The translations under genes and the position numbers were made by a program. This document shows, piece after piece, positions 1-50,775 of a DNA stretch of 59,765 nt. Source of the stretch: a virus (lineage: Duplodnaviria > Caudoviricetes). The stretch covers positions 1-59,765 of the IMG/VR virus record IMGVR_UViG_3300037311_000053; one strand, 5' to 3'. The notes beneath the pieces were generated by a model. It worked only from the letters and a program-made list of their open reading frames with translations. It searched no databases and was not told the origin of the DNA. The stretch's first letter is position 1. Every line of letters starts with the position of its first letter.

Positions 1-175
1 ACCAACGGATAGATCCGACATCTTCGCCTAAATCCGGAACGAGGTCGAGTTCTCCGATGCGGTCGATCCAAGACCGGACAGCTGTTTGGCGCAAGGGTAT
101 GACCATAGCGTCCGCAAGTGCGACGCTGCATCCCACCCCAGCACTGGCAAAGCGCAAATCTTTGCCTTCAAACAT
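1..175 (-). CDS. Host gene, 5' part only; probable M23-family metallopeptidase
   Basis: Hand translation from ATG at 175: MFEGKDLRFASAG...GELDLVPDLGEDVGSIRW, open to the window edge, with a purine-rich RBS upstream. The DLVPDLGEDVGS..W segment resembles sphingomonad M23 N-termini (from recall); the catalytic domain is outside the window. Confidence 0.5.
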   Translation of the reverse strand, partial: MFEGKDLRFASAGVGCSVALADAMVIPLRQTAVRSWIDRIGELDLVPDLGEDVGSIRW

Positions 176-240
176 AAGCGACCCCTGTCCTAATCCAAAT
201 TGGACGGAATTTTATCCCCCATCTCCTGTGACGCGATATG

Positions 241-258
241 GTTAAAGTCAATTAAACG
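241..258. other. Left attachment site (core AAGTCAATT at 245-253)
   Basis: GTTAAAGTCAATTAAACG shares its core with 58804-58812; recombining the two gives attP CGTTTAA-GTCAA-TTAAACG, a perfect inverted repeat. Confidence 0.8.
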
Positions 259-297
259 CGCAACAAGAGATTTGCGGCAGAAAGTGCATTTTGTGCC

Positions 298-419
298 GGA
301 AAACCACCCCACGCAAACGCTTGCATTAGCCGGATCGGGGAAAACTTTATGACCGCTAATATATTATTACAGGCGACAGACGCTAAACAGCCAGTTTCAT
401 CCGATTGCGCGGGAAAATC
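298..419 (+). repeat. Candidate integrase arm-type sites GGAAAA(C/T)(C/T)
   Basis: Copies at 298, 339 and 412, with matching copies at 58748 and 58759, on the phage side of each att core. Confidence 0.45.
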
Positions 420-473
420 CTGCACGGATAATGGCGCTATTCATGCACCTGTGGGAAATGGGGGGATGGTGTG

Positions 474-737
474 ATGGAAGACGAATTCCAACATAAACTA
501 TCTGCTCTAGTCTCAAAGCAACTATGTGGTGACGCGGACGCGGTTGGAACTGCCATAGAGCGGCTGACAGATGCGCTTGGTTTGGCTGTCGCAGTTTCTT
601 GCGGCGGGGACATAACGCGGGCCGATGATATGCTTATGGGGGTTGATAACTACTTAGCTGAGTGCGTGGCCAATCATGCCAAGTTAGCGGCCTTTATGGC
701 TCAATGTCGCCCCACCCCCAAGCAACCCCTAACATGA
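474..737 (+). CDS. Hypothetical phage protein
   Basis: ORF with G-rich RBS; first gene inside the left att site. Confidence 0.6.
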   Translation: MEDEFQHKLSALVSKQLCGDADAVGTAIERLTDALGLAVAVSCGGDITRADDMLMGVDNYLAECVANHAKLAAFMAQCRPTPKQPLT

Positions 738-783
738 AAGGAATGGAAGATGGCTGACATCGCTAGTTTAAAGGCTGCGGGTT

Positions 784-999
784 ATGAGTGAAGCTTGCGG
801 CGCATACACGGGCGACACCATTTGCGCCAACGGCTTCTTGTCGGTGAACGCAATTTGTAGCGGGCGGTCAAAGATAGGTTGCCGAGTCTGCGGCACAATA
901 ACCAGGCTTCCGCCTTGCCTGAACGAGAATGAAATCAAGTATCATGCCGATGATGCTGGAATGCCGAAATTGGCGCACTACAGAAAGGCCAAGAAATGA
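784..999 (+). CDS. Small Cys-rich hypothetical protein
   Basis: CxxC motif; ATGA coupling to the next ORF. Confidence 0.45.
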   Translation: MSEACGAYTGDTICANGFLSVNAICSGRSKIGCRVCGTITRLPPCLNENEIKYHADDAGMPKLAHYRKAKK

Positions 1000-1220
1000 T
1001 CGACCCTGAACAGATAGCGGCTAGCCTGACAGCGGGTGAGATAAAGCATCTTAACCGCCTCGCCACATCCAGCGCCCCGCTTGCGCGCAGAACTGGGTGG
1101 AAAGCGCGGGCAATCATGATGAAAGGATTGAGCGAGTGGGCTGACTATAAGGCTGGCACCGAACGCCTCACCGACCTCGGCCTAGCAGTCCGCGCCATTA
1201 TCGAAAGGGATAGCAAATGA
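996..1220 (+). CDS. Hypothetical phage protein, possible winged-helix
   Basis: Coupled ORF; C-terminal LTDLGLAVRA motif is common in alphaproteobacterial phage proteins. Confidence 0.65.
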   Translation: MIDPEQIAASLTAGEIKHLNRLATSSAPLARRTGWKARAIMMKGLSEWADYKAGTERLTDLGLAVRAIIERDSK

Positions 1221-1355
1221 CCAGCAACAACGGACGCCCAATACAACCGCACCGCCCCGACTTTAAGAAGCCAGCGCCAAGCCCCTATCCAGTGCTACCC
1301 ATCTGCAAGCACGGCATCATGGTAGGCCCATGTTCTAAATGTGAGGAGCATAGCA

Positions 1356-1556
1356 ATGGGAAGTGAGAGAGAGAAGATCGTGGCCGATGCTGAAACATGG
1401 TGGGCGCTTAAAATGCGGGAAAGCAAGTTTGTTTCGGCGCGGGTTGATGGAACTGGTCGTGTGGACGTTTGGTGGAAAGACGCCGACGAGAGCGGGGAAT
1501 ACACCCTTCCTGAAAACTTCCGTGACCACCTAACCACAGAAAGGACTGACAAATGA
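1356..1556 (+). CDS. Hypothetical phage protein
   Basis: GAGGAG RBS before ATG at 1356. Confidence 0.55.
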   Translation: MGSEREKIVADAETWWALKMRESKFVSARVDGTGRVDVWWKDADESGEYTLPENFRDHLTTERTDK

Positions 1557-1653
1557 CCTGGCTTCAAGCGATATTAGATAAATGCGCTGCCGAACTTGAG
1601 CGCCGCAAGGGTCAACCAATGTGGCTGAAAATCGGCCTCGGAAAGGACTGACA

Positions 1654-2040
1654 ATGGTTGAGCAGGTAGATAGGGATGCTGCGGCGGAGCAATATTTGGA
1701 GATGCTCCCATTTTCTACAGAGGAAGGCGCCAAATTCATACGTAATGGGAAAAATGACGAACTACCATTAGTCCAAGCCTTTGCCGCCCACCGCATCGCA
1801 GCCGAGGCGCGTGGGAAGGAAGCCGCTGCGAGGATTGCCAGTGAACACGCGGCAACGTGGGGAAAGCGTTGGCGCGAAAAGGAAGATGAAGGCGACAAAC
1901 CGGACATCTATCAGCACGGCAGACTGGCAGGACTTTCAGATGGTGCAGCGACTGTCGCAACCGCCATCCGCGCATCCATAGGTCAAGAGCATAGCAGCGA
2001 AGTCGAGAGGTTGCACCATTTGTTGCGTGAGTATCTTTAA
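1654..2040 (+). CDS. Hypothetical phage protein
   Basis: AAGGA RBS before ATG at 1654; LVQAFAAHR motif. Confidence 0.65.
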   Translation: MVEQVDRDAAAEQYLEMLPFSTEEGAKFIRNGKNDELPLVQAFAAHRIAAEARGKEAAARIASEHAATWGKRWREKEDEGDKPDIYQHGRLAGLSDGAATVATAIRASIGQEHSSEVERLHHLLREYL

Positions 2041-2128
2041 GCAGAGGAAATAGACGACCCAGCCACACGAATGGCGGAGTTGGCAGCTTGCAGGCAACTC
2101 GCCCGCGCAGCACTGAATGGAGGACAGC

Positions 2129-2380
2129 ATGGAACTGATTAACGACATTATCGCCAGCATCGACAACGAACCTAATCGCTGGAAGTGGTCTGGCCACACA
2201 TTCGACAGGGATGACGGCTTGAAAATTTGGCGGGTTAATATGCCCATTTTGGATATTGAACTATACGCACCTTTTCAGATGTCTCTCCCGCTTTCCGCCA
2301 AGTTTCGTATTTGGCGCGCAATGTGTCGGCACAAGAATATGCTTTCATTGGACGCCTATATGCGCGGAAGGGCATGGTAA
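2129..2380 (+). CDS. Hypothetical phage protein
   Basis: GGAGG RBS before ATG at 2129. Confidence 0.6.
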   Translation: MELINDIIASIDNEPNRWKWSGHTFDRDDGLKIWRVNMPILDIELYAPFQMSLPLSAKFRIWRAMCRHKNMLSLDAYMRGRAW

Positions 2381-2488
2381 TGGAGGCCAGCATGACGATT
2401 GAAGAAATAGCCCAGCTTGTTCTAATTGTTTTCTTGGGTGTGATAATGATCGCAATCTACCGCTCTCCACTCATCTGAAAGGCAACCA

Positions 2489-2806
2489 ATGACCAAAGAC
2501 GACGCGATAAAAGCGATTGAGAATTATCCCGCTACCCTGGAATTTAACGGGATGACATTCATCAACAGGGAAAGCGCAATAGAAGTCCTTAACGCCCTGC
2601 CCGATGCAGGATGGAGGGATATCTCCGAAGCGCCGAAGGATGGCAGTCGTATTCTCCTAGCCATGAAAGATAGGACCGGCGAACAGATGGTTTACGAAGG
2701 CAGATGGAACGATAAGAAGAAGCACTTTACTTCAACCAACGGCTTCTTGTTATTTGATAACTGCACCCACTGGATGCCCCTACCACCCCCACCGGAGAAA
2801 GCGTGA
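2489..2806 (+). CDS. DUF551-like phage protein
   Basis: WRDISEAPKDG...THWMPLPPPP signature. Confidence 0.8.
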   Translation: MTKDDAIKAIENYPATLEFNGMTFINRESAIEVLNALPDAGWRDISEAPKDGSRILLAMKDRTGEQMVYEGRWNDKKKHFTSTNGFLLFDNCTHWMPLPPPPEKA

Positions 2807-3117
2807 TGAAATGGAACCCGCCAAGTGAACGAGTGATGTTGGTGTTACTGTCACCGCTCATAGTGCCAGCCACCGCATTTCTTTTTATTGGGTTGCTACC
2901 GATACTGGCGGTATCTTGGCTGCAAGACCGCTTTGATCATAATCGCGGCCAGTGGCGGCAATGGTTTGCGTGGCGTCCAGTCTATTGCGACGGATTTTGG
3001 TATGACCAAAGGAGCAAATGGGTCTGGCTCGAAACGATAGAGCGCAGGGGTTTTTGGCTCGATAACTCAGAATATCGGCTAAAAGGATGGTCCTCAATCT
3101 ACCAAGGGAAAGCGTGA
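2803..3117 (+). CDS. Hypothetical membrane protein
   Basis: N-terminal TM segment plus WFAWRPV...WVWLETIERR phage motif. Confidence 0.7.
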   Translation: MMKWNPPSERVMLVLLSPLIVPATAFLFIGLLPILAVSWLQDRFDHNRGQWRQWFAWRPVYCDGFWYDQRSKWVWLETIERRGFWLDNSEYRLKGWSSIYQGKA

Positions 3118-3368
3118 TGGATATTATTGAACGGGCAGCGAGGCAGGCTTGTAAAGAAGGTGGCTTTGACCCTGACGAAATGATGCCGAATGATGGGCCG
3201 CGATGGAAATACTACGTGCCGAATGTCCGCGCCGTCTTATCCGCCATTCGTGTGCCTGATGAGGGGATGATTGAGGCAGGTAGCGCAGCAATACAGTCAA
3301 GCGGCTTTGTAGATGATGCCACAAAGCTAGGCTGGCAAGCAATGATAGACGCAGCGTTGAAAGGGTGA
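3117..3368 (+). CDS. Hypothetical phage protein
   Basis: TGATG coupling; PDEGMIEAG...WQAMIDAAL motif typical of phage early genes. Confidence 0.75.
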   Translation: MDIIERAARQACKEGGFDPDEMMPNDGPRWKYYVPNVRAVLSAIRVPDEGMIEAGSAAIQSSGFVDDATKLGWQAMIDAALKG

Positions 3369-3372
3369 TGTG

Positions 3373-3558
3373 ATGGATATTGAGCAGATTCAGAAAGCCG
3401 GTGCAAATGCTCGTGCGCTTGGGCGTGATAGATACTCTAACCCATATTACAAGGTCGAGCATATGCCAGTTAACACGGGCCAGACCTACGAAAAATGGCA
3501 GGCTGATATTGATGCTTGGGATTTGGGCTGGCAGATGGAAGATGCCTTGAAGGGGTGA
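3373..3558 (+). CDS. CrpP-related / ribosome-modulation-factor-like small protein
   Basis: GANARALG...NPYYK...AWDLGW pattern. Confidence 0.65.
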   Translation: MDIEQIQKAGANARALGRDRYSNPYYKVEHMPVNTGQTYEKWQADIDAWDLGWQMEDALKG

Positions 3559-3562
3559 TGGG

Positions 3563-3748
3563 GTGAAGCCGCCAATTCCTCCTGCATTTTGCAGCCATCT
3601 GCAAAAGATTGTATACGACACAGGAAGCACTACAACAGGCCGTTGCCCTCTTTGCGGAACGCGCATTACAGTCGTGGCTATCCGCAAGGAAGTGAAATAT
3701 GGCGAAACTTGGTCGCCAAAGATGCCGCCTGTCGAAGTTGGTGGTTGA
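3563..3748 (+). CDS. Small putative Zn-ribbon protein
   Basis: CSH...CPLC; last gene of the left operon. Confidence 0.4.
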   Translation: MKPPIPPAFCSHLQKIVYDTGSTTTGRCPLCGTRITVVAIRKEVKYGETWSPKMPPVEVGG

Positions 3749-4009
3749 CCGTCTTTCCAGTCTGTCAGCCGCATAGCGAGTGGCGCGATTGCTCCGCCTA
3801 ATCGAGCATCATCTAAACCGATCTCACCAAATCCACAACATCTCGTCGACGCATGAAATCGGTGCGCCGGCAAATCGTGCGCCTCAATCGAGAACCGCGC
3901 CAAATCCACGTACCGAGCCTAGGCAGAGTGCAACTTCAAACTATGCCAATGCTCAAAAAATGGGGCAGATGCTAAAAAAGTGGTTCTCCACCGCTTATCA
4001 TTGACATCA

Positions 4010-4345
4010 TCAATGGGTAGGAACCGTGTTTTTCTTGCGCCTCTTTGGCTTTTCTTTGGGCACTTCGATTGCATCGCTTTCAGGATCGACGGCGATGACG
4101 TGCACAAGCTGGCCATCGAGTAAGGGCAGGGCCGCAAGGTTAAACCCCATTGCTTTATAAACTGCAGTCAATGCGTTCCAGGTTGAGGCGCTACACTTTC
4201 CGCTTTCAGCGCTCACTAATGTCCTAAGGCTTAGGCCAGCTTTCGCGGCCGCTTCCCTTTGATCGATGCCAGCAAGGGCGCGCATTGCTCTCATAATAGC
4301 GCTTTTATCTGCCATTTTGCGCTCTATGTGTAGCGTTTGTGTCAT
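4010..4345 (-). CDS. XRE-family HTH transcriptional regulator
   Basis: RAMRALAGIDQREAAAKAGLSLRTLVSAESG helix-turn-helix; GGAG RBS before ATG at 4345; divergent from the accessory operon. Confidence 0.85.
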   Translation of the reverse strand: MTQTLHIERKMADKSAIMRAMRALAGIDQREAAAKAGLSLRTLVSAESGKCSASTWNALTAVYKAMGFNLAALPLLDGQLVHVIAVDPESDAIEVPKEKPKRRKKNTVPTH

Positions 4346-4596
4346 TTGCTTGTCTCCATACGGTGGATAGGTAGCATTTATTTGCATTTTATGTGCAATT
4401 AATGCTTGCAATCGCCGTAAATATATTTCAGTAAGGCGTCAACGGCAAAGAAAGCTCGCCTTTGCATATACACAATAGGGCAGATCAGTGGATAAGGCGG
4501 GGCCTTGGCAACAATGCGCCCCGCCACTTATTCCCCAAAGCCTTCGCAGCTTGTCCGATTGCGAAGCGTTCACTTGGGACAAAAGGAATTGAGCAA

Positions 4597-4821
4597 ATGT
4601 CACATTATGCACGTAAATTCGACAATCGTTTAGGCTTTGGGCGCGAACGCCTCACTATTAAAGCCTTTCCTACTAACGACGCATTGCATCGCTTTCTCAA
4701 TACACAAGGCAATGAATGGGGCGTTAGTGGCTACGGGCTAAAGGCTGGCACTTATGCCATGGCAGGCGGCAAATGGCACAATGTCCGCAAGTTGGATGCC
4801 ATGACGTTGGCGCATGTATGA
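4597..4821 (+). CDS. Hypothetical protein
   Basis: AAGGA RBS before ATG at 4597 (MSHYARKF). Confidence 0.7.
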   Translation: MSHYARKFDNRLGFGRERLTIKAFPTNDALHRFLNTQGNEWGVSGYGLKAGTYAMAGGKWHNVRKLDAMTLAHV

Positions 4822-4928
4822 TGCCCCGTCTATCCCGCGAAACATTGGAACAATTCGCAATCTGTCTTTTGATTGTGATTGTGTCCGCTTCCCTAACCTT
4901 TGGTGCAATTGGAGTAAGCCAGCCATGA
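4818..4928 (+). CDS. 36-aa single-TM peptide (not in ORF track)
   Basis: MMPRLSRETLEQFAICLLIVIVSASLTFGAIGVSQP; ATGA overlaps on both sides. Confidence 0.55.
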   Translation: MMPRLSRETLEQFAICLLIVIVSASLTFGAIGVSQP

Positions 4929-5212
4929 ATGACCTATCCACCTATGCGGCCGCCCTATCGACTAAAGCCGATATTGAGGCAATTTACACTAGGGCAAGCG
5001 ACGAATTGCGCGCCCTAGCAGGGGGCGGCCCTATGGGATTGACGCCCGATAGCGTTAAACAATCGCCAGAATTTAAAGCTGCTCAATCCGTTTTTAATTA
5101 TTGGCACGCCCGATTGAGGCAATTCAATGCGGCATTTATTCGCCAATACGGCAAGCAATATCATGCTGAATTGAGGGCGCAACGTGCCAGCTTATCGAAA
5201 GGGGGAAACTAA
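4925..5212 (+). CDS. Hypothetical phage protein
   Basis: GGAG RBS; GPMGLTPDSVKQSPEF motif. Confidence 0.75.
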   Translation: MNDLSTYAAALSTKADIEAIYTRASDELRALAGGGPMGLTPDSVKQSPEFKAAQSVFNYWHARLRQFNAAFIRQYGKQYHAELRAQRASLSKGGN

Positions 5213-5217
5213 CCAAA

Positions 5218-5288
5218 GCCGAAACGCGCGGCCATAGCGTCGCGCGTCTGGACGGATTGCCTAACCGTTCACTGATGAGGCAAGGCAA
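5218..5288 (+). ncRNA. Hammerhead ribozyme, type II, with loop I pseudoknot
   Basis: Stem II GCC 5218-5220 / GGC 5279-5281; GAAA 5221-5224; stem III CGCGCG 5225-5230 / 5241-5246; GUC cleavage after 5248; stem I UGGACGG 5249-5255 / CCGUUCA 5265-5271; CUGAUGA 5272-5278; loop UUGCCU 5257-5262 pairs with AGGCAA 5283-5288. Confidence 0.93.
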
Positions 5289-5302
5289 AAGGATTTTTAT
5301 TT

Positions 5303-5872
5303 ATGACGATTTTAACAGAACAAGAAACATTGCAGCGCGCGGCCGCGCGTCTCAATTTGACGGTTAAGGCTCAATTTGTCCCCTTTAGCGTTTCACGTTC
5401 AAAGGATCAAAAGGACAAGAATCTAAACTGGAAAGTGACGCTGCAGCGCGACGGCCGCGACATTATCGAAACGGATTATAGCGCCGGTCAAGGGCATTGC
5501 CCTAGCTATAAATCCCCGCCTAAATTTTCATCCGGCGCCGTTGATAAATGGAAGCATCGCAAGCAAATAGACATGGAATGCGAGACGGGGAAGCGCTGCA
5601 AATTTCAATATGAAAGCGCGCAATCCCTTAGCCCTATTTCCAGCCAGCCAATTGTGCCCGATGAATGCAGCGTTATCTATGCCCTAGTCATGGATTCCGA
5701 TGTTCTCAATTATTCCAGTTTTGAGCAATGGGCGGGCGATTTTGGTTATGATACGGACTCGCGCCAAGCCGAAAAGATTTACCAGGATTGCTTGGCGATT
5801 GCCCTAAAATTGCGCGCCGGATTAGGTGAGCAAGCCCTAAGCGAATTGGCGGCCGCTTGCCAAGATTATTGA
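5303..5872 (+). CDS. Hypothetical phage protein
   Basis: AAGGA RBS; FEQWAGDFGYDTDSRQAEKIY motif seen in phage early regions. Confidence 0.85.
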   Translation: MTILTEQETLQRAAARLNLTVKAQFVPFSVSRSKDQKDKNLNWKVTLQRDGRDIIETDYSAGQGHCPSYKSPPKFSSGAVDKWKHRKQIDMECETGKRCKFQYESAQSLSPISSQPIVPDECSVIYALVMDSDVLNYSSFEQWAGDFGYDTDSRQAEKIYQDCLAIALKLRAGLGEQALSELAAACQDY

Positions 5873-5941
5873 TCGAAACAATCGGCGCGCCTTGCCCTAT
5901 CGGCGGAATATGTGGCGCGCCCTATCATGGGAATTGAGACA

Positions 5942-6166
5942 ATGGATATTGCAACACAAATGGAGCTTTGCAACCAATTTGGAATTGTATTAGGCCGCGA
6001 TTTTCACGCGCTTAATTCGGATCAAGTTGAGCGCATTATAGCGGCTGCGGATTCGGTTAAATATCGCAAACCCAAAAGCGCTAACGGATCGCGGGCGCGA
6101 TATTTTTATCAGGCATTGCAAAGGGCGCACAATCGCCGTTGTCGCGCGCTCGGAATGAAAATCTAA
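5942..6166 (+). CDS. Hypothetical protein
   Basis: ATG at 5942 (MDIATQMELC); KYRKPKSANGSRARYF motif. Confidence 0.7.
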   Translation: MDIATQMELCNQFGIVLGRDFHALNSDQVERIIAAADSVKYRKPKSANGSRARYFYQALQRAHNRRCRALGMKI

Positions 6167-6216
6167 ACCCTATCGTGAAAATTCGGGCCAATGGGGCCCT
6201 ATCAGGAGAATTTGAT

Positions 6217-6582
6217 ATGTCGAAGTTTTATGAAGTCCGTTGCACCGCAAGCGCGGAAATAACAGAATTGTGGCGCGTTCAAGCCGATAGTGAGGATCAA
6301 GCGATTGAATTAATCGGGGAAGGGCAAGGCGATTTTATCCGTCAATGCGATGACGATGAAGAGCGCGATAGGCGCGACTGGCAAGCCGATGAAATTTTGC
6401 CGTATGAATATGAAACGCTTGGCCAATGGGATCAGATGCAAGCGGCCGCGCCCGATATGCTGGCGGCGCTGGAAGATGCCTATTCGGAATTGCTGGCAGA
6501 TAGCCATAGAGACGGGCCGCGGTGCCTTTTGCTTACTCAAATGGAGCGCGCCATAGCCAAGGCAAAGGGGCAAGGGGCATGA
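6217..6582 (+). CDS. Hypothetical phage protein
   Basis: AGGAG RBS lies inside a motif copy; AAAPDMLAALE...AIAKAKG phage motif. Confidence 0.8.
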   Translation: MSKFYEVRCTASAEITELWRVQADSEDQAIELIGEGQGDFIRQCDDDEERDRRDWQADEILPYEYETLGQWDQMQAAAPDMLAALEDAYSELLADSHRDGPRCLLLTQMERAIAKAKGQGA

Positions 6583-6770
6583 ACGCGCGTTACAAAAGCC
6601 GAATTGCGGCGAGCAAAGGGCGGCAAGAATTAGAATTGCTGGCCGCGGCTAAGCGCTTTGGTGACAGAGGAGCGGCCGCGTTTGTGGAAATAGCAAGGGC
6701 GCGACATAATGCGCCGATAACTTTGGAATATGCCGCGGATCTGATTAGCCGCGCAAAGTCTGCACCCTAG
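6579..6770 (+). CDS. Hypothetical protein
   Basis: ATGA coupling to the upstream gene. Confidence 0.6.
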   Translation: MNARYKSRIAASKGRQELELLAAAKRFGDRGAAAFVEIARARHNAPITLEYAADLISRAKSAP

Positions 6771-6784
6771 CGGCGCAATAGAAA

Positions 6785-6861
6785 AGCGAAACGCCCGCCC
6801 CCTTTCGTGGGAATATCGGGCGTCACTGGAGCAAGGCCGATTCCAGTCTGATGAGCTGGCC
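6785..6861 (+). ncRNA. Hammerhead ribozyme, type II (second copy, different stem sequences)
   Basis: Stem II AGC 6785-6787 / GCU 6855-6857; GAAA 6788-6791; stem III CGCCCG 6792-6797 / CGGGCG 6817-6822; GUC cleavage after 6824; stem I ACUGGA 6825-6830 / UCCAGU 6842-6847; CUGAUGA 6848-6854; loop GGCC 6835-6838 can pair with GGCC 6858-6861. Confidence 0.92.
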
Positions 6862-6879
6862 AAAATGGAGACTAAGACA

Positions 6880-8376
6880 ATGGAAATCACGAAAATTGAA
6901 GCCGCGAGCGAATTTAACCTATTTGACCTATTCGCTAAATGCCAAGTGGTAGGCGACAAGCGCGTCGCTAATGATGATGAATGCCGCGCCTATGCGCGCT
7001 GGCTGGCCATGAAAGCGGGCGTTGTGGAAGCGGTAACGAATAGCCCCGTTCTCGAATGGAAATACAGCGGCCGCAAGCATAGCGATAAAATTTGCATCGG
7101 CGCATATTTTGGGAATGCCTTTGTCACGTTTCCCGGTGCGGATCAGAACGGCGCCGTAACTTTCGAGTTATTGGACGAAAGCGGCAATGTCGAAACAAGC
7201 GGCACCATATACGCCAAGCCGAACGGGGCGCTTAATGTGAGCCCGTCCGATGCTGCAGCGATTAAGGAAAGCGGCAAGGCATGGGCCAAGGCGAACAAGG
7301 GCAAGGCAAAGGCCGTTCCGGTTGCCGTTGCTGCCCCTATCGATGAACCGGCACCCGTTGCCGCCCTACCGGATGAATTGGACGCGCCCGAATGCGCCCC
7401 AGAGACGCCACAGGACGACGCGCCCGCTACTACCCTAGCCGAAACGCCTGAAATAGCGCCACAGGACGAAAAAAACGGCGTTGCCGATGATATTGAAGCG
7501 CAACCCGATCCCATTGCGGCATTGATTGCGCGAATTGAGGCGCTGGAAGCGGCCATAAATGGAGCAAAGGCAGGCAGCGCAACCAAAAGCGAAAATCAGG
7601 ACGATTTGTCAACCGGCACCCCTTCCGTGGGAATATCGGAACCTGCACCCCTTTCGGGGGAATTGAAGCCCAAGCGCTCCCCCGCTCATATTCGGGCGAT
7701 TATCGCCTATCTGGCTATGCGGAAAGAGCGCAATTCGGAACGCAAGCATAACGCCATAGGAATGGCGCAACTGGATGAGATGCGTAAAGAATGCGGCCAA
7801 TGGCGGGGATTGGCAGAGAGCAGCGCAGCCGAATGCCTGAAATTGCGTAAAGAGCGCGATGATTATGAGGGATTGCAGCAACGGACATGGGAGCAGGCGA
7901 TGGGCTATAAGATGCAGCGCCGCCGCGCTATCCTGAAAGCGCTGGCCCTTCGTGGGAATTTGAAACGCTCGCGCGATATTGCCACCGATAGGCTCAAGCA
8001 GATCGTTGACATGTCCGACCGCCTTATTTCCGAGAGCAGCAAAGCCACGACCGCCGAAACATGCGCCCGTTCGGCCGAAAGCAGGGAAGCCAAGGCTAAT
8101 GCCGAATTGGCGGACATCAAACGCAAGCTCGCAGATCCGGCTAACCCCTTCCGCCTGTCCGATATGGTGGCGATAAATGACAAGGCGGGGGAATATCAGG
8201 CACGCGCCGAAAGGGCAGAAGCGGAAAGCGAACGCTTGCGCCGCTTGGCCATCCAGAACGCGGGGCATATCGAGACGCTTGCCAGCCGGATAGCAAAGGC
8301 CGAAACCATGCTGCGAGATAGCGGGTTGATGCCGGCGCTTTCAATCGTCCCCCCTTCCGTAGAAATTGCGGCATAG
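6880..8376 (+). CDS. Large hypothetical protein: globular N-terminus, Pro/Ala/acidic linker, long coiled coil
   Basis: GGAG RBS before ATG at 6880; ~498 aa; heptad-rich C-terminal half. Confidence 0.85.
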   Translation: MEITKIEAASEFNLFDLFAKCQVVGDKRVANDDECRAYARWLAMKAGVVEAVTNSPVLEWKYSGRKHSDKICIGAYFGNAFVTFPGADQNGAVTFELLDESGNVETSGTIYAKPNGALNVSPSDAAAIKESGKAWAKANKGKAKAVPVAVAAPIDEPAPVAALPDELDAPECAPETPQDDAPATTLAETPEIAPQDEKNGVADDIEAQPDPIAALIARIEALEAAINGAKAGSATKSENQDDLSTGTPSVGISEPAPLSGELKPKRSPAHIRAIIAYLAMRKERNSERKHNAIGMAQLDEMRKECGQWRGLAESSAAECLKLRKERDDYEGLQQRTWEQAMGYKMQRRRAILKALALRGNLKRSRDIATDRLKQIVDMSDRLISESSKATTAETCARSAESREAKANAELADIKRKLADPANPFRLSDMVAINDKAGEYQARAERAEAESERLRRLAIQNAGHIETLASRIAKAETMLRDSGLMPALSIVPPSVEIAA

Positions 8377-8488
8377 GGTATTCGTGGGAATTATGGTGAC
8401 TTCTCTGCCCTATCATGGCATAGAAATCGGGCCGGTTAAGCTGCGTCAACAGCCACCGGCCCTGACCACTACGAAAGGATACTTCGCT

Positions 8489-9073
8489 ATGGCTAGTCGC
8501 CAATTGCCCGATATTGATGTGCTACACAAGTTAATGGAATACGATTCCTTAACCGGATTATTCACATGGAAGCGTCGCGCGCCTGAATTATTTGATAATT
8601 CCAAGGGGCAGGCGTTGTGGAGATCGAGAGTATGGAACTCGAAAAATGCTGGGAAACCGGCTTTAAATAGACCCCATGGCGTTGGGAGGACACACCTATC
8701 TGGCGGGATATTAGGCGAACTTTGGTTGGCTCATAGAATCGCGTGGGGGATGCACTACAATGTGCGTGATTTTGATGTGATCGACCATATCGACGGTGAT
8801 GGCACCAACAACAGAATCTCTAATCTGCGCACCGCAAACATGGCCATTAATGCTCGCAATGCGGCGATGCGTAGAGATTCTACAAGTGGTGTATCAGGGG
8901 TTCATTGGCATGTAGGAAGATATGGGAGGCCGGTTTGGGTCGCTAGAGTGCAAGTAAACGGAAAGCGCCACTTCCTTGGCTCTTTTGATGACATTGAGCA
9001 GGCAAAATCCGCTCGCCTTTCAGCGCTATCTAAATACGGATTTGGCCCATCCCACGGAAAGTTGAGAAAATGA
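8489..9073 (+). CDS. HNH homing endonuclease with AP2-like C-terminus
   Basis: AHRIAW...IDHIDGDGTNNRISNLR...SGVSGVHW...FLGSF. Confidence 0.9.
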   Translation: MASRQLPDIDVLHKLMEYDSLTGLFTWKRRAPELFDNSKGQALWRSRVWNSKNAGKPALNRPHGVGRTHLSGGILGELWLAHRIAWGMHYNVRDFDVIDHIDGDGTNNRISNLRTANMAINARNAAMRRDSTSGVSGVHWHVGRYGRPVWVARVQVNGKRHFLGSFDDIEQAKSARLSALSKYGFGPSHGKLRK

Positions 9074-9750
9074 GTGTAGATTATACCTACACAAAATCAC
9101 GGCCTAAGGAATTATGCCAATTAGCTGGCCGTTGGAATGGGCACATTCCTGCTTGTGGCATAATTAGCGAAGTCAAATATGATGGTTTCCGATGCTTGTA
9201 TTTTCGCGGATTGGAGGGCCGGCCAGCCCTGTGGACGCGCAATGGCTTTCGCATAGAGGGGACAGGCCATATTCTGCATAGGCTATCACTTATGGAACGC
9301 GCAGCCGGTTACCCCCTATTCATCGACGGCGAATTTCAGGTTGACGGAACACTGGCCGCAACAAAGGCGTGGTTTGAATCCGGTTGGAAGTCAGGCGATG
9401 AGGCTGGTCAGCTATTCGCTTTTGATTGTATGCCACTTTCCGATTGGGAAGCAGGGCGCAGCGATGTGCCTTGGTATGAGAGAAAGAAACTCTTGGCCGA
9501 TCTACTAGCCGCTTCCTATGTCCTACCGGACGATTGGGAATGGCGCGAGGGGCGTCGTGGGGATGAGCCGGCCACCCCTATCAGCGTGATACCAGATCAA
9601 TGGCTGGAAACGGCTACGGATGTGCGCGATGAAGCGGAAAGAGTGTGGGCGCGGAATGGAGAGGGTCTTATGCTAAAAAACCCAATGGCACCCTATGTCC
9701 GTGCTCGGTCGAACGAATGGCTAAAGGTGAAGCGCAATGGCGTCCGATAA
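9070..9750 (+). CDS. ATP-dependent ligase, adenylation domain only
   Basis: Motifs I EVKYDGFR, III IDGEF, IIIa FAFD, IV EGLMLK, V WLKVK; stop five residues after motif V, so no OB-fold. Confidence 0.85.
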   Translation: MSVDYTYTKSRPKELCQLAGRWNGHIPACGIISEVKYDGFRCLYFRGLEGRPALWTRNGFRIEGTGHILHRLSLMERAAGYPLFIDGEFQVDGTLAATKAWFESGWKSGDEAGQLFAFDCMPLSDWEAGRSDVPWYERKKLLADLLAASYVLPDDWEWREGRRGDEPATPISVIPDQWLETATDVRDEAERVWARNGEGLMLKNPMAPYVRARSNEWLKVKRNGVR

Positions 9751-9862
9751 GAAATGTCCGCGCTGCACCCCCGCCGATGAAGTTACATGGTCCGACCTGC
9801 AATCAGATCGGGTCGAGTTATGCAAAGAATGTCAGGAGAAAATAAGTGACACCGAAAGTTGA
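9737..9862 (+). CDS. 41-aa putative zinc-finger peptide (not in ORF track)
   Basis: MASDKKCPRC...LCKECQEKISDTES; two CxxC motifs. Confidence 0.4.
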   Translation: MASDKKCPRCTPADEVTWSDLQSDRVELCKECQEKISDTES

Positions 9863-10280
9863 AAAGAACGTCGAGAGGCTGATCGAGAAACTGCGCGATG
9901 CCTATGCGGTAAATCCCGCTGGTGTTGGCGCCATCGTGAACGATGCGACCGTACTTGCAAATAGGCTCATCAACCGAGCCCCTACCGAGGGGATGGAGCG
10001 GATCGAGTACGCGCCGTCAAAGGGTCCGGTCTATGAGTTTACCGGCCTTGTGCTGCACGAGGGCTCGTACAACGATACATCGATCGAGATCGCTCAATCC
10101 CTATCAGGGAAATTGGTGGTCTTTCAGGAATGGCGTGGTTCTCAGGGCGACATGCTCAGTCGTGTCGACGTTCTCGAAGCCGGTGATTACATCGGCGTCA
10201 TGGATGCTCTCAACTGGTCCGGTCTTGCTCGTAATGCAGCCAAGGCGCTCAAGTGGCGGTTGCGCGTGGAAGTCGATTGA
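9846..10280 (+). CDS. Hypothetical protein
   Basis: AGGAG RBS before GTG. Confidence 0.7.
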   Translation: MTPKVEKNVERLIEKLRDAYAVNPAGVGAIVNDATVLANRLINRAPTEGMERIEYAPSKGPVYEFTGLVLHEGSYNDTSIEIAQSLSGKLVVFQEWRGSQGDMLSRVDVLEAGDYIGVMDALNWSGLARNAAKALKWRLRVEVD

Positions 10281-10301
10281 CCCCCTATCAGGAGAATTGC
10301 G

Positions 10302-10547
10302 ATGAACAAATTTGACGAACAGGCTGAAGTCATGAAGACGAAGTTGAGGCACAGTTTCAGCAAAGTATCCTCTGATATATCTCGAAGTCTGGAAAGCGCA
10401 TTTAACAGCCCAGAGGCTAAACGTGCATTGAAAGAGTTGTCCGATGCCGTTGGTCAAATCCAGATCGATAACAAGGCATGGCAGGATTATCGCGCGGCCT
10501 TGAAGCGAGCAAGACTGCAAGCGACTGAAAGCAAAAAAGCGGGCTGA
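10302..10547 (+). CDS. Hypothetical helical protein
   Basis: AGGAG RBS inside the motif copy at 10283. Confidence 0.65.
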   Translation: MNKFDEQAEVMKTKLRHSFSKVSSDISRSLESAFNSPEAKRALKELSDAVGQIQIDNKAWQDYRAALKRARLQATESKKAG

Positions 10548-10572
10548 AGGTTTGACCCTCCAACCCGCTTTT
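10535..10572. terminator. Probable bidirectional intrinsic terminator
   Basis: AAAAGCGGG...CCCGCTTTT between the convergent accessory and lysis operons. Confidence 0.6.
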
Positions 10573-10670
10573 CGAGGTTCCCCCTCATTTCCCCACACCC
10601 TATCAGGGCAATTATGGGCCGGTCACGTTCCCCCGAACCATTGACCGGCCCTCCCGCGTGGACGGGAACC

Positions 10671-10943
10671 TTATCTCTTTGGCCATGCCTCGATCAGCAA
10701 TTGGCGCTTCTTTTCACAGTCCGCATTGGCCAGCGCTGAGTTGGTCATCATCCGGCGAACCTGAGCCCGCGTTGCGCTACCATCTGGCTGCGTTTCAATT
10801 TCCGGTGTCGGTTTGCACGGCCTCTGCGCTTCCAAGGGCGCTGAGGGGATAGGCGGTAGCGTTGATGGAGCGGATATTTTGATTTGCTTCTGACACCCCA
10901 TCAGCGTCAAGGCACACAGCGCTGCCAGAAGCAGTCTGCTCAT
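10671..10943 (-). CDS. o-spanin (Rz1-like lipoprotein)
   Basis: MSRLLLAALCALTLMGC lipobox, Pro-rich; overlaps the i-spanin in another frame. Confidence 0.8.
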   Translation of the reverse strand: MSRLLLAALCALTLMGCQKQIKISAPSTLPPIPSAPLEAQRPCKPTPEIETQPDGSATRAQVRRMMTNSALANADCEKKRQLLIEAWPKR

Positions 10944-29977: not shown

Positions 29978-30912
29978 GGCCGCAGTCTCCTTTCTCTTTT
30001 GATGCGGTCGGTTTCTTCTTCGAGACGGGACCATGCCTCGCGCTCGGAGATCACAGCGTCCATCAGGCCAAGGCTGACAGCCTCCTTGCCCTCGAACCAA
30101 TCGGCTTCGGTTTCCAGAACAGCATCAACCGGCATGTTGCGGCCGATACTGACAAGGTTGGCGAAGCGTTTGCGGACATCATCGACACTGGCCTGCAATT
30201 TGGCCGCTGTCGTTTCGTCCAAACCTTCGTATGGGTTGCCGCGCATCTTGCGCTCGCCGGAGCGGATTACGGTCACATCAATACCGTCTTCTTCCAGCGC
30301 ACGATTGATGCTGGTGTGAACCACGACGCAGCCAATTGAGCCGACCATCGCGTCCTCTGGCCCGTAAATCTTATCGCAAACCGAGGCGATCGCATAAGCC
30401 GCGCTGCAAGCCTGCTCATTGACCCAAGCATAGATGGGCTTGCCGCCCTCTCCTTGGGTCATCTGGGCAAGTTCTTCCACAAATGAAAAGAGGCCCGAAA
30501 CGGCCCCTCCTGGACTATCGATGTCCAACCAGATGCCTAAGACATCTGGGTCGCGGTATGCGTCCGTCAATTGCCGCAAGAGCATGTTGTAGCCACAAAA
30601 TCCGCTCATTGCATCGAGATAACCTGCTTTATGTACGAGCGTGCCTTCAACGCGGATGACAGCGATGTCTCCATCCATCGAATAAGCCTTGCTGCTCTCG
30701 CGGTCATACTTTGCATCACGGGCCAGCGCAGACCGTTCCAGCATGGCATTGGCATCCAATGTCACAGCATCAATCGTCTTCATTGAAACGATGCCTAGTT
30801 TTGCCTGTAGCGCGCAAAGCAAGACTTCCATCTTGTGAGGATGGATTGCGACCGGCCTGTTTAAAAGTTGCTGGGCGATATTGGGAAAGCCTTGTGGGCG
30901 AAAATTGCTCAT
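29974..30912 (-). CDS. S49-family head maturation protease
   Basis: LDIDSPGG, ACSAAYAIAS, VGSIG. Confidence 0.93.
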   Translation of the reverse strand: MSNFRPQGFPNIAQQLLNRPVAIHPHKMEVLLCALQAKLGIVSMKTIDAVTLDANAMLERSALARDAKYDRESSKAYSMDGDIAVIRVEGTLVHKAGYLDAMSGFCGYNMLLRQLTDAYRDPDVLGIWLDIDSPGGAVSGLFSFVEELAQMTQGEGGKPIYAWVNEQACSAAYAIASVCDKIYGPEDAMVGSIGCVVVHTSINRALEEDGIDVTVIRSGERKMRGNPYEGLDETTAAKLQASVDDVRKRFANLVSIGRNMPVDAVLETEADWFEGKEAVSLGLMDAVISEREAWSRLEEETDRIKRERRLRP

Positions 30913-31484
30913 GCCGCTTTTCTTCCGTGATTAGGATGGAAGCCATATTGGCGCTCGGCTGCTTTTCTTGCCGAAATAGCTCCGTCTTTTGTAGGAAAGA
31001 GGCCCAAGTGCTTTTTGCGCCGATTAATTTTGATGAACGCACACCATTTTGAGCGCGATCCATGCCAGTAAACACCCATGTGTCCGCTAGTATTTTTTGC
31101 GTTCAACTTTTGATTTCGCATATTTTCGGTATCAGAGACTAGTCTAAGATTTCCGATGCGGTTGTTTTGCGGGTCGCCATCAATGTGATCGATGTCTTGG
31201 TTTGGCCATGCCCCATAATGGAGCGCCCATGCCACGCGGTGCGCTTTGTAGCGCAGACCAAGAATATCGCCGTGGCCATAACCGTTAGCTTCGACGCTCG
31301 CCAAAGCAGGGGTTCCCGCATATCGGGCATTCCACTTCCTGCTTGACCAAATCGCGCCCCGTCCATCGTCCGAAAAGTAATGTAATGGTCTTGCGCGCCA
31401 CGTTAGTTTCCCAGTTACAGCATCGTAGCTAATAAGGTCGCGCAGTTGATCAACGGTGATCAAAGGATCACGTATCTTCGCCAT
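30909..31484 (-). CDS. HNH homing endonuclease with AP2-like C-terminus
   Basis: AHRVAW...IDHIDGDPQNNRIGNLR...SGHMGVYW...HLGLF; similar to 8489-9073. Confidence 0.9.
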   Translation of the reverse strand: MAKIRDPLITVDQLRDLISYDAVTGKLTWRARPLHYFSDDGRGAIWSSRKWNARYAGTPALASVEANGYGHGDILGLRYKAHRVAWALHYGAWPNQDIDHIDGDPQNNRIGNLRLVSDTENMRNQKLNAKNTSGHMGVYWHGSRSKWCAFIKINRRKKHLGLFPTKDGAISARKAAERQYGFHPNHGRKAA

Positions 31485-42662: not shown

Positions 42663-43118
42663 TCATGATTTATCTCCCTCATTCCCCTCAGCGCCAATCT
42701 TCAATTCCGAAACCAGTGCAGCCAGTTCCTCAGGCTTCACCCGTTCTTCATCAGGTATCGGGCGCCTCCATTCCCGCTCGTGCTTTAATATGAGCATCTT
42801 GGCCTGACCCTTTTTGAATTTCCGCATCTTGCGGGGGTACTCAGCCAGTTCGATGATCTCTGAGACATCGGGGAACCACTTGTTCTCCCGCATCAACCGG
42901 CCAAAAGCGTAACCCAGATCGACCCGTGAATAGTCCTTCAGGACCGTTACAAACGTCGCCAAGATCATCTTGCTATCGGTTGCCGTGGCCTTCCGAGACG
43001 GCTTGATGCTCAGGGCAATGATCTGCTTCTCGATCCACTCAGGCTCGGCCAAGGGCGGCTCAGGATGGTCAACAAACTCCCGAAGGATTGCTGTCGTCTC
43101 AGGGCCAATCACCGGCAT
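42663..43118 (-). CDS. Replication accessory protein (helicase-loader-like position)
   Basis: KWFPDVSEI motif directly after the initiator; start uncertain (ORF is open to 43259). Confidence 0.6.
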   Translation of the reverse strand: MPVIGPETTAILREFVDHPEPPLAEPEWIEKQIIALSIKPSRKATATDSKMILATFVTVLKDYSRVDLGYAFGRLMRENKWFPDVSEIIELAEYPRKMRKFKKGQAKMLILKHEREWRRPIPDEERVKPEELAALVSELKIGAEGNEGDKS

Positions 43119-50016: not shown

Positions 50017-50069
50017 CTGTTACGGTTATCGTAAGGTAAAAGTCAAATGCAAAATTACGAAATCCGTTA
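50017..50069. promoter_or_regulatory. OR-like operators and cro promoter
   Basis: TTACGGTTATCGTAA 50020-50034 and TTACGAAATCCGTTA 50055-50069; minus-strand TTGACT-N18-TAACAG. Confidence 0.75.
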
Positions 50070-50103
50070 CAGACCCCAGCCGCCGCGCGGTTTACGCTGG
50101 GAT

Positions 50104-50775
50104 ATGCTTAGTCATGACGAAATATTGGCCGAGATGATTCGGCAATTTGAGGCGGGGAAAATCACGTTGGCGCAAGTTGCGCGGCATCTCACCATTGCCC
50201 CAGCCCGCGTTACCGAAATGAAGAAGGGTGATCGCAAGATACAGCCGACCGAAATGCACAAGCTGGCTGAGTTTCTTGGCATGACATCTGTTCCCACGCC
50301 TACTCAGGCGATCGAATCCATAAGGAAAATCCCTATTCTGGGGAAAGTTGCGGCAGGAGTTTGGATGGAGCAAACCTACGTAGATGAAGATTTTATCGAA
50401 ACCATCGAATATGACCGCCTACCGGGTGACGGCAATCCAGAGGACATGTTTGCGGTAATCCCAGAAGGGGCCAGCATGAACCAGACAATACCGGCAAATA
50501 TGATCTTGATATGCAGGAGAGTGCCGTTCGGCTTTAGTGGCTTCAAGGAGAACCAGTTGGTTATCGTTGAACGTGAGAACCACAACTTGAGAGAGATGAC
50601 GTGCAAACGGCTGAAATACTCGGAGAGCGGCGATTTTCTCTTATGTAGCGAAAGCGACCGGCCTGAGTTTGCCGAGCCATTCTTTGTGAAGCGGTCGACA
50701 GATCACGAATTTGTTGACATGGAAATCAGCATAATTGGCGTAGTGATCCGAGGCGTGGTCGATTTCCAAAACTGA
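50104..50775 (+). CDS. CI-like repressor (HTH plus S24 peptidase)
   Basis: HTH, VAAG cleavage site, EGASM (Ser), TCKR (Lys); probable start ATG at 50104. Confidence 0.92.
   Translation: MLSHDEILAEMIRQFEAGKITLAQVARHLTIAPARVTEMKKGDRKIQPTEMHKLAEFLGMTSVPTPTQAIESIRKIPILGKVAAGVWMEQTYVDEDFIETIEYDRLPGDGNPEDMFAVIPEGASMNQTIPANMILICRRVPFGFSGFKENQLVIVERENHNLREMTCKRLKYSESGDFLLCSESDRPEFAEPFFVKRSTDHEFVDMEISIIGVVIRGVVDFQN

Follow-up and report, generated by a model that had tools for sequence, protein, structure and literature searches.

A one-directional 16-bp word repeated through one accessory gene block of a temperate phage lineage, a possible stoperator-like control site at mosaic joints

An accessory gene block in a complete temperate siphovirus-like phage genome (the window, a stretch of 59,765 bp analyzed at its full length) carries a 16-letter polar word, CCCTWYC-N3-RRAATW, which occurs 10 times in its strict form (CCCTWYCNNNRRAATW) and about 14 times in all, points with transcription in every instance, and is shared, together with the block, by five distant relatives, among which is a prophage of an Alphaproteobacteria MAG. 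We suggest that the word is a stoperator-like docking site for a putative phage protein that gates transcription of the block and that it serves secondarily as a joint for the exchange of gene cassettes; this reading has in our estimation a probability of about 0.4. The whole case is built from the sequence of metagenomic contigs.

All 10 strict copies lie on the plus strand between positions 5895 and 10298, compared with a mean of 0.05 and a maximum of 1 in 100 dinucleotide-preserving shuffles; the entire record gave 10 forward and 0 reverse matches, and the pattern read backwards as a control gave none in either direction. Near-copies at 7945, 8377, and 10598 were confirmed in the sequence and complete the set of 13 that a sequence-only reading of this DNA had listed, every one of which is present, with its four pair spacings of 25, 29, 29, and 25 bp correctly given. 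A matrix built from these 13 copies and applied to the whole 59.8 kb returned 13 matches on the plus strand and 0 on the minus strand at a score of ≥14, and 14 and 2, respectively, at a score of ≥12, while one trained on the other genomes alone returned 12 and 1. Beyond the listed copies we recovered a weak copy at 7364, decayed copies at 6765, 7337, and 9576, and, at 8408, one that carries a 3-nt insertion (Table 1); every copy in the window lies between 5895 and 10613 of 59,765 bp. Alignment of 39 copies from four genomes confined the information to the 16 positions of the word, with AAT invariant (39/39), GGA and GGAG not so, and the N3 spacer constrained, being mostly GTG, AGG, or GGG. The A/T degeneracy at positions 5 and 16 would be compatible with a minor-groove reading of duplex DNA. 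Pairs are spaced by 21 to 31 bp across genomes, out of helical phase, and cooperative binding is therefore not indicated.

Table 1. Copies of the word and genes of the accessory block (window positions)
Feature	Position	Strand	Context	Basis
Copy	5895..5910	+	Pair 1, first (25-bp spacing); intergenic, after gene A	Exact match
Copy	5920..5935	+	Pair 1, second; 6 nt ahead of gene B ATG 5942	Exact match
Copy	6168..6183	+	Pair 2, first (29 bp); 1 nt past gene B stop	Exact match
Copy	6197..6212	+	Pair 2, second; AGGAG at Shine-Dalgarno distance to gene C ATG 6217	Exact match
Copy	6800..6815	+	Single, between genes D and E; weak copy at 6765-6780	Exact match
Weak copy	7364..7379	+	1 mismatch; E linker; partner is decayed copy 7337	
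In-gene copy	7620..7635	+	Pair 3, first (29 bp); E linker, codon frame 2 (TPSVGI)	Exact match
In-gene copy	7649..7664	+	Pair 3, second; E linker, codon frame 1 (PLSGEL)	Exact match
In-gene near-copy	7945..7960	+	E coiled-coil part; 5' half one base short	
Copy	8352..8367	+	Pair 4, first (25 bp); final codons of E (PPSVEI)	Exact match
Near-copy	8377..8392	+	Immediately past E stop	
Degenerate copy	8408..8426	+	3-nt insertion; then hairpin 8429-8462 (fold z -4.6)	Alignment
In-gene copy	10099..10114	+	Gene I (SLSGKL, frame 1)	Exact match
Copy	10283..10298	+	2 nt past gene I stop, 3 nt before gene J ATG 10302; AGGAG inside	Exact match
Last copy	10598..10613	+	Near-copy at junction with convergent late operon; no clear gene after	
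Gene A	5303..5872	+	189 aa, phrog_4273, function unknown; upstream border of block; homologs in L042, L043	
Gene B	5942..6166	+	Small swappable gene	
Gene C	6217..6582	+	Small swappable gene	
Gene D	6579..6770	+	Small swappable gene	
Gene E	6880..8376	+	Coiled-coil protein, 498-503 aa	
HNH endonuclease gene	8393..9073	+	HNH_3; true start possibly ATG 8489	
ATP-dependent DNA ligase	9070..9750	+	Adenylation domain only, 226 aa	
Gene I	9846..10280	+	144 aa, no family; adjoins ligase in relatives too (conserved)	
Gene J	10302..10547	+	81 aa, no family; diverged version instead in one relative	

The word is restricted to a single co-directional block of about 5 kb containing small swappable genes, the gene for the coiled-coil protein E, an HNH endonuclease gene, and an ATP-dependent DNA ligase gene. 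In the structural model of E, a low-confidence N-terminal part precedes a disordered linker (approximately residues 140 to 265), which holds most of the in-gene copies, and a long coiled coil (residues 268 to 480); in one homolog a DnaN sliding clamp takes the place of the N-terminal part. Lambda O-type origin iterons are direct repeats in the linker-coding part of the binder's own gene, near an AT-rich stretch. Copies of the word do cluster in the linker-coding part of E, but roughly half of the total are outside this gene, and the model of its product shows no DNA-binding fold by eye. The only proteins that accompany the word in all relatives are E, the ligase, and the product of gene I, and the HNH gene is absent from G001, G002, L042, and L085. 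The E gene of G002 is split in two, and a word pair precedes the C-terminal gene.

Exact copies in the sense and reverse orientations numbered 10 and 0 in the window, 6 and 0 in G001, 2 and 0 in G002, 3 and 0 in L042, and 6 and 0 in L043 (27/27 in gene orientation), and a sixth genome, L085, gave 3 and 0. When each of the first five was scanned with matrices trained on the other genomes, 47 of 48 matches were in gene orientation and one was reversed. In G001, which is complete, the copies are confined to one block as in the window, and the span of this confinement across genomes is 2 to 5 kb; convergent junctions carry the word in L042 and G005 as well. The host MAG contains three exact copies, all within the prophage, and at ≤2 mismatches it yielded 64 matches against 65 for controls; by our own count, 401 genomes of the host class yielded 26 matches against 24 for controls and no other cluster. 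The word is thus not a host regulon. The earlier proposal of a directional signal under selection is supported: the word is polar, restricted to one gene block, and kept in homologous regions of five distant relatives, and matches are neither equal on the two strands nor enriched elsewhere in the phage genome or in the host. The word is also found in unrelated phages, as arrays of two to four copies at the head of an early operon (as in the G008 group) and at gene junctions. The phages that share the word range in G+C content from 47 to 65% and have no detectable common protein; our search found no protein family common to the lineage of the window and three unrelated array-bearing lineages.

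Selection acts on the nucleotides of the word. Of 54 copies placed on our own gene models, 24 are intergenic, 28 are within genes, and 2 overlap stop codons; about half fill stop-to-start spacers, and sites occur at a density of one per 200 to 400 bp irrespective of gene borders. The pair inside E is retained in G001, at 30% amino acid identity, and in L043, and its two copies occupy different reading frames; in our own reading of the codon alignment, synonymous positions within the word are identical in three genomes and third codon positions vary in the adjacent conserved KPKRSPAH. Two reading frames together with conserved synonymous sites therefore indicate selection on nucleotides, and DNA similarity to G001 and L043 starts at 7619. 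The E gene of G001 has a further intact pair, which precedes the conserved one by about 285 bp, and the layout of the window is alike (7337/7364). At the end of the block, copy 10598 is flanked by a terminator-like hairpin (10536-10571) followed by UUUU upstream and by a second hairpin (10616-10651) downstream; the latter and the copy constitute the same unit as the 8408 copy and its hairpin.

The word marks points of gene swapping between relatives. Homology breakpoints of two relatives fell within 3 nt of a copy in 7 of 28 cases (1.8 expected; P of about 0.0015) and within 12 nt in 11 of 28 (3.0 expected), a coincidence that would also arise if unrelated cassettes simply had nothing but the word conserved between them. 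Genes B, D, and J have been exchanged exactly between copies, and homology to relatives begins or resumes exactly at copy 6168. In one relative homology stops at 8376 and is followed by that genome's own copy of the word; the block in common with L043 (5938-6219) comprises gene B and the B-C junction, with both copies included.

In our proposal, the word controls one accessory block of this temperate phage lineage in cis and in an orientation-dependent way, and its reader would be a sequence-specific phage protein acting on double-stranded DNA. This protein would probably be monomeric and have two reading heads, the first recognizing CCCTWYC and the second RRAATW, roughly one helical turn away. 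Sites repeated every few hundred base pairs and aligned with transcription, in stop-to-start spacers, in tolerant coding stretches, and at the end of the block by the convergent late operon, may when occupied block or gate RNA polymerase within the block, in the manner of cluster A mycobacteriophage stoperators; where a copy adjoins a start codon, the ribosome-binding site would be covered too, and as a by-product the conserved words would give relatives stretches of identity for swapping gene cassettes. We favor action on DNA rather than on RNA because copy 10598 lies behind a terminator-like hairpin and U run with no gene after it. A precedent is described in the cited part of PMC9283540, in which a monomeric two-domain repressor bound to an asymmetric site stops elongation in an orientation-dependent manner. 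The stoperators covered there (L5 gp71 and the TipsytheTRex repressor) are likewise short, asymmetric, present in many copies, tied in orientation to transcription, and located at gene junctions, and the two-part word would suit a monomer with two DNA-reading domains of the cluster A kind. In that account, however, stoperators are 13 bp long, distributed genome-wide, and placed in short intergenic spaces, whereas the word is 16 bp long, confined to its block, and often within genes and in tandem pairs; cluster A sites are bound by the phage immunity repressor, a monomer with a helix-turn-helix domain and a second domain, whereas the CI/S24-type immunity repressor here is not conserved with the word, and the word extends to unrelated phages. 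The differences in placement and the spacing of pairs out of helical phase stand against our preferred reading, as do further observations. Unrelated lineages with the same word share no protein family, which is odd for a private phage repressor because repressor specificity should drift, and the block offers almost no sigma-70-like promoter for a repressor to control.

Two proteins had been put forward from sequence as binders. The XRE/CI repressor is unsupported: the repressor of the window (50047-50775) is of the helix-turn-helix (HTH) plus S24 peptidase type, and tblastn at an E value of <1 gave no match to it in the complete G001 genome, which uses the same word. Protein E is not supported either: it does accompany the word in all relatives, but we saw no DNA-binding fold in its model on inspection by eye, and it is absent from the unrelated array-bearing phages. 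No other candidate was found. The further suggestion of an RNA element is weakened as regards a hairpin, since none is conserved, the word has no match in Rfam, and, in our own reading of the copy lists, there are no compensatory changes and copies that lose CCC keep GGG; an RNA-level function in other forms survives.

Such a function would be an unlikely, if the best supported, alternative to the docking site: a start-associated element resembling the SAS of cluster K mycobacteriophages, with a purine-rich 3' half that is or extends the ribosome-binding site and a 5' half bound by a factor or rRNA, tuning translation or processing of the next cistron and of internal starts in E. Five copies in the window end 0 to 6 nt ahead of a start codon (the starts include those of genes B, C, and J and the 8393 open reading frame), similar placements recur in G001, L043, and G002, the AGGAG of copies 6197 and 10283 is at Shine-Dalgarno distance, all copies are in the sense orientation, and the word pair of G002 stands ahead of the C-terminal gene of its split E. 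As described in the cited portions of PMC3203893 and PMC12699233, SAS and ESAS are also asymmetric, in one orientation, restricted to nonstructural genes, and absent from the host, and SAS lie a few nucleotides before starts with a Shine-Dalgarno-like core and additional conserved flanks; a universal reader such as the ribosome would, moreover, account for the word in unrelated phages. These same sources place nearly all SAS 3 to 7 bp before a start codon and only 6 of 125 in open reading frames (PMC12699233), whereas start-proximal copies of the word are a minority and more than half are in genes or overlap stops; ESAS have an inverted-repeat extension that the word does not, and the sequences differ. 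The first copy of each pair is 25 to 33 nt from the start codon, no gene follows 10598 (itself behind a terminator-like hairpin) or L042 copies 7194, 7301, and 7327, the invariant element is AAT rather than GGA or GGAG, a fixed RNA partner could not stay paired through the A-to-T and T-to-A changes at position 5, and compensatory hairpin changes are, as above, lacking.

It is rather unlikely that the word is instead a site of DNA transactions, whether a strand-specific nick of the kind found in the virion DNA of T5, phiKMV, and tf, a polar barrier to replication, or a dedicated recombination site for cassettes, with the neighboring ligase and the clamp-linked E taking part in the same process. 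Copies on one strand at positions conserved among relatives recall the T5, phiKMV-like, and tf interruption sites as presented in the cited part of PMC3517423, and the constant company of the ligase and E (with its DnaN fusion), the density of sites regardless of gene borders, and the exact swaps and breakpoints at copies fit as well. Against this, no nickase or recombinase accompanies the word, the HNH gene being missing from four genomes, and tandem copies 21 to 31 bp apart make little sense as nicks; the sites treated in that part of PMC3517423 are scattered genome-wide and defined by physical nicks, whereas ours are clustered, often tandem, and known from sequence. The breakpoints carry the qualification given above, and replication genes lie elsewhere in the window (DnaD-like, 43099-43941).

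We regard as quite unlikely a compact promoter read by host RNA polymerase with a phage specificity factor, with copies in tandem serving as tandem promoters and those within genes as internal promoters for the genes downstream. T4 late promoters are read with gp55. Copies follow terminator-like hairpins past gene A, between the two E genes of G002, and past gene J; transcription of the genes beyond such hairpins would have to start afresh, and nothing but the word is conserved at these places. A consensus scan found no sigma-70-like promoter in 5.8 to 10.6 kb except one inside the ligase gene at 9155 (6 sites in 12 kb against 11.2 in shuffles), orientation is universally sense, and the arrays of the G008 group are at the head of an early operon. 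Regulatory cassettes that double as recombination joints are known: PeSL of T4-type phages, in the cited part of PMC2839356, are likewise short repeated units between small nonessential genes at which shuffling occurs, but they consist of a sigma-70 promoter and a terminator stem-loop, whereas the block has no such promoter and hairpins follow only some copies. The conserved part is only 16 bp with nothing at the -35 distance, and where a -10 element would have its key -11 A, about half of the copies, and every G001 copy, have T. Because the Shine-Dalgarno sequences of the genes behind 6197 and 10283 lie inside the word as its 3' half, they would be lost to any transcript that began at the word or beyond it. 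No sigma-like or RNA polymerase gene was found, and promoters at convergent junctions would direct transcription into the late operon from its 3' end.

More doubtful still is a new kind of DNA-level system, an integron-like phage cassette platform, in which the word would be a recombination or nick site, small genes including the hopping HNH gene would be excised and reinserted at any copy, and the ligase and a clamp-tethering E would process the joints, or in which the clamp link would couple expression to nicks or to the clamp. In T4 late transcription, expression is coupled to DNA nicks. Coupling to the clamp has been reported for MuC in the cited part of a preprint (bioRxiv 10.1101/2025.01.04.631326). 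Highly improbable is a homing target beside which a free-standing HNH endonuclease inserts: HNH genes of one family directly follow the word on its 3' side, both in the window (8377/8408) and in L010, an unrelated contig (an array and then HNH), and one relative seems, on a tentative 45-nt match, to have the HNH leader unit behind copy 10283, but the gene is absent from most word-bearing genomes, HNH copies at 30909-31568 of the window and in G008 have no adjacent word, and homing would explain where HNH genes land and not why about 50 copies are conserved. We give hardly any credence to antisense targets, for although late-operon read-through over 10598 would yield RNA complementary to all copies, in a minus-strand order of hairpin, anti-word, and terminator hairpin with U run (fold z -4.7) that is similar in G005, the arrangement was not found in L042 (z -1.3) or G001, a small hairpin takes up part of the anti-word, any long seed would be broken by variable positions, and Rfam gave no match.

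A few actinobacteriophage clusters are known to have dispersed words that run in one direction, and the function of SAS is still untested 14 years after their description. The word described here belongs to uncultured phages, at least one of them an alphaproteobacterial prophage, and includes copies inside the coding sequence of a disordered linker under synonymous-site constraint. Its presence in phages with no detectable common protein is hard to square with a private repressor and suggests instead that the reader is widely shared or that the regulatory cassettes are mobile. It also shows cleanly how genes can be exchanged precisely at a conserved, probably regulatory word, which bears on the origin of phage mosaicism.

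The strict pattern CCCTWYCNNNRRAATW matched the 59,765-bp window 10 times, always on the + strand and within 5895-10298 (shuffled sequences averaged 0.05 matches), and a control pattern read backwards gave 0 matches in the window. The near-copies at 7945, 8377, and 10598 claimed in the sequence-only reading are all present, and the one-strand bias that it described was upheld when both strands were scanned: a matrix made from its 13 copies gave 13 + versus 0 - hits in the whole window at a score of at least 14, and a matrix trained on other genomes only gave 12 + versus 1 -. Alignment of 39 copies from four genomes yields the consensus CCCTWTCGKGGGAATW, in which AAT is invariant (39/39) and information ends sharply at the 16 positions. 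Copies of this polar 16-bp word (CCCTWYC-N3-RRAATW) recur every 200 to 400 bp, with a pair spacing of 21 to 31 bp. The window, a whole virus record rated complete by CheckV, carries a CII-like gene among its lysogeny genes and a long - strand operon that begins with replication genes, continues with those for terminase, portal, capsid, and tape measure, and ends with endolysin. Small + strand genes extend from position 1 to 10547, and the word is limited to the final 4.7 kb of this run, where the order is A, B, C-D, E, HNH, ligase, H, I, and J; the late operon converges after J. A DsbA-like thioredoxin gene (58933-59580), at the right end of the record just past the integrase gene, represents a moron or else flanking host DNA.

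Features of the phage genome, additional copies of the word, and joints in alignments with relatives
Feature	Position	Strand	Remark
Integrase gene	57677-58744		Lysogeny gene
HTH + S24 repressor (XRE/CI) gene	50047-50775		Lysogeny gene
HNH endonuclease genes	8393-9073, 30909-31568, 52672-53220		Three in a 60-kb phage
Weak word copy	7364	+	Decayed partner at 7337
Decayed word copies	6765 and 9576		Additional to the 13 first listed
Word copy with 3-nt insertion	8408	+	From alignment
Gene B replaced	Between 5946 and 6168
Homology start of one contig	6168
Gene D replaced	Between 6582 and 6784 (one relative), 6570 and 6765 (other)
Homology end	8376		Followed by the relative's own word copy
Gene J replaced	From 10280

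Scans for two word copies 23 to 31 bp apart found 10 loci in viral contigs and 9 in 596 Gb of prokaryote genomes, the latter being 8 chance tandem repeats with other spacers and 1 prophage in an Alphaproteobacteria MAG. A looser pair pattern returned 48 loci, mostly unrelated low-G+C tandem repeats. Of the others, L085 is a new relative, and L066 and L078 are doubtful arrays; L066 (1409-1770) is a long 15-bp tandem array in a 33% G+C viral contig, with a unit resembling the spelling in the unrelated G008 phages, and is probably microsatellite-like and unrelated to the word, while L014/G004 is probably a chance tandem repeat. Searches for relatives in genome contigs and in metagenome contigs gave one locus each; none emerged from the E sequence alone or from an E alignment among viral contigs, and blastn of cultured phage records gave no match to the window. 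Homologs of the coiled-coil protein E (27 to 39% identity) and the ligase (40 to 53%) occur in G001 (complete, 61 kb), G002 (a provirus), L042 (the MAG prophage), L043 (a 7.9-kb metagenome contig ending shortly after the E gene), and L085; of these, all except L043 encode gene I as well. Exact copies in gene orientation and in reverse number 10/0 in the window, 6/0 in G001, 2/0 in G002, 3/0 in L042, and 6/0 in L043, and cross-validated matrix hits number 12/1, 8/0, 7/0, 6/0, and 14/0, respectively; L085 has 3/0 copies. Unrelated phages carry tandem arrays of 2 to 4 near-identical copies with even the GTG/GTA spacer in common, located at the head of an early operon (G008 group, 47% G+C), at a gene junction (G003, 65% G+C), and at a convergent junction (G005). 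The G008 contig also begins (L023) and ends (L025) in a 16-bp tandem repeat of another word, about 100 to 160 bp from the array, so that two kinds of direct repeat lie within one control region.

Tabulated against our own gene models, 54 copies comprise 24 that are intergenic, 2 over stop codons, and 28 in genes. Of the 13 copies first listed in the window, 8 fall within the 331 intergenic bases that make up 7% of 5873-10613, and much of those spacers consists of the word. Most of the copies within genes fall in the disordered linker of E and others in a loop of the ligase, and their reading frames are distributed 18:9:1; we read the frames used as those whose peptides (xLSxE[LFY] and P[SI]xG[IM]) disordered or loop regions tolerate. 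The E-linker pair is retained in the window, G001, and L043 despite 30 to 39% protein identity, its two copies lie in different frames (TPSVGI and PLSGEL), and blastn similarity to G001 and L043 begins one base ahead of the pair, at 7619. In our reading of the codon alignment, synonymous positions within the word are identical and third positions of the adjacent conserved KPKRSPAH vary. To judge from these alignments, selection acts on the nucleotides of the word. In G002, two genes stand in place of the E gene (5108-7024 in reverse strand coordinates), separated by a GC-rich hairpin and a word pair. A stretch of about 35 bases in gene C (6438-6476, ...APDMLAALEDA...) has matches in contigs of three runs with no other similarity, and in L043 at 94%, and looks like a widely shared short phage coding motif.

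We suggest, with a probability of roughly 0.4, that a putative protein binds the word as DNA and gates transcription there. This fits a compact two-part site, its W degeneracies, and its strict co-orientation with transcription, as well as the copies located past a terminator, those at convergent junctions, and the arrays heading an operon; counted against it are the failure to find the binder and the occurrence of the word in unrelated phages. The closest precedent is provided by the stoperators of cluster A mycobacteriophages, which are spread genome-wide (PMC9283540), a defining feature that the word fails although it resembles them in other respects. The XRE/CI repressor, proposed as the binder from sequence, is not supported, word-bearing G001 having no homolog, and E, the other protein proposed, fared no better: it co-occurs with the word in relatives, but its model shows a coiled coil and a disordered linker, and unrelated carriers lack it, an HMM of its conserved part having found no relative among them. 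An atlas search returned nothing above chance level for E and nothing for gene I. Most relatives lack the HNH gene; in the unrelated contig L010, relatives of HNH 8393-9073 lie directly after word arrays. When six-frame ORFs were compared all against all, with several contigs incomplete, no family turned up in every one of the four lineages; the only ones shared, by two of the four, were HNH genes and a DUF551-like small protein. Among some 70 window ORFs scanned against Pfam and PHROG, no second DNA-binding regulator emerged. Enrichment in the host, raised in the sequence-only reading, did not emerge: neither the host MAG nor 400 other genomes from that class showed enrichment or a second cluster, which disposes of a host regulon factor. 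In a comparison by eye, none of the DnaA box, the ParB/Noc half site, the sigma-32 -10 element, IHF, ops, and boxA/boxB matched all copies.

A role in RNA or translation like that of the SAS of cluster K mycobacteriophages is unlikely. Start-proximal copies end 0 to 6 nt upstream of ATG, with AGGAG at Shine-Dalgarno distance in two, and a GGGCCGG hairpin lies 3' of some copies (8408 and 10598). SAS are characteristically placed before start codons, a feature that the word fails although it resembles them otherwise; no RNA hairpin is conserved at the word and no compensatory changes were seen in our copy lists, and Rfam gave no match. Two related GGGCCGGT...ACCGGCCC hairpins at 8429-8462 and 10616-10651 each follow a word copy. 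The copy at 10598 comes after a terminator-like hairpin, with no gene following the copy; the whole junction at 10540-10675, whose - strand is predicted to fold strongly (z -4.7), looks like a two-way terminator. An antisense small RNA at 10547-10655 was rejected, since the structure is present but the arrangement is not conserved in L042.

Quite unlikely is a DNA-transaction site linked to the ligase and the clamp. In the E homolog P0010 (773 aa), the N-terminal and central domains of the DnaN sliding clamp replace E's own N-terminal part, and E and most homologs begin with a conserved (E/D)F(N/D)LF, resembling the clamp-binding motif QL[SD]LF; together these hint that E may tether the host clamp. 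The ATP ligase (9070-9750, 226 aa) matches an adenylation domain only, with no OB domain detected, and gene I (9846-10280, 144 aa), directly downstream of it in G002, L042, and L085 and weakly matched in G001, might supply the missing part.

A compact phage-specific promoter we rate only marginally lower. The word shares features with PeSL of T4-type phages, which have a sigma-70 promoter as a defining feature; none was found in this case.

When contigs of two relatives in public runs were aligned to the block, the alignments fell into pieces that break at the word. Among the matches listed, 7 of 28 breakpoints lie at most 3 nt from a copy, where 1.8 would be expected (p about 0.0015), and 11 of 28 at most 12 nt, where 3.0 would be expected, in alignments that naturally extend as far as the only conserved sequence, i.e., the word. 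L043 shares, at 89% identity, the stretch 5938-6219, comprising gene B and the B-C junction with both copies. The reading of a back-joint as a "hop" of the HNH gene is weakened, as the 45 matching bases are a word-plus-hairpin leader unit and not the gene. A full-text literature search for spellings of the word returned nothing relevant; we regard it as a variant among the dispersed polar junction words of phages, a known kind, and the exchange of cassettes at its copies, apparent as a pattern in these alignments, may be either its function or a by-product.
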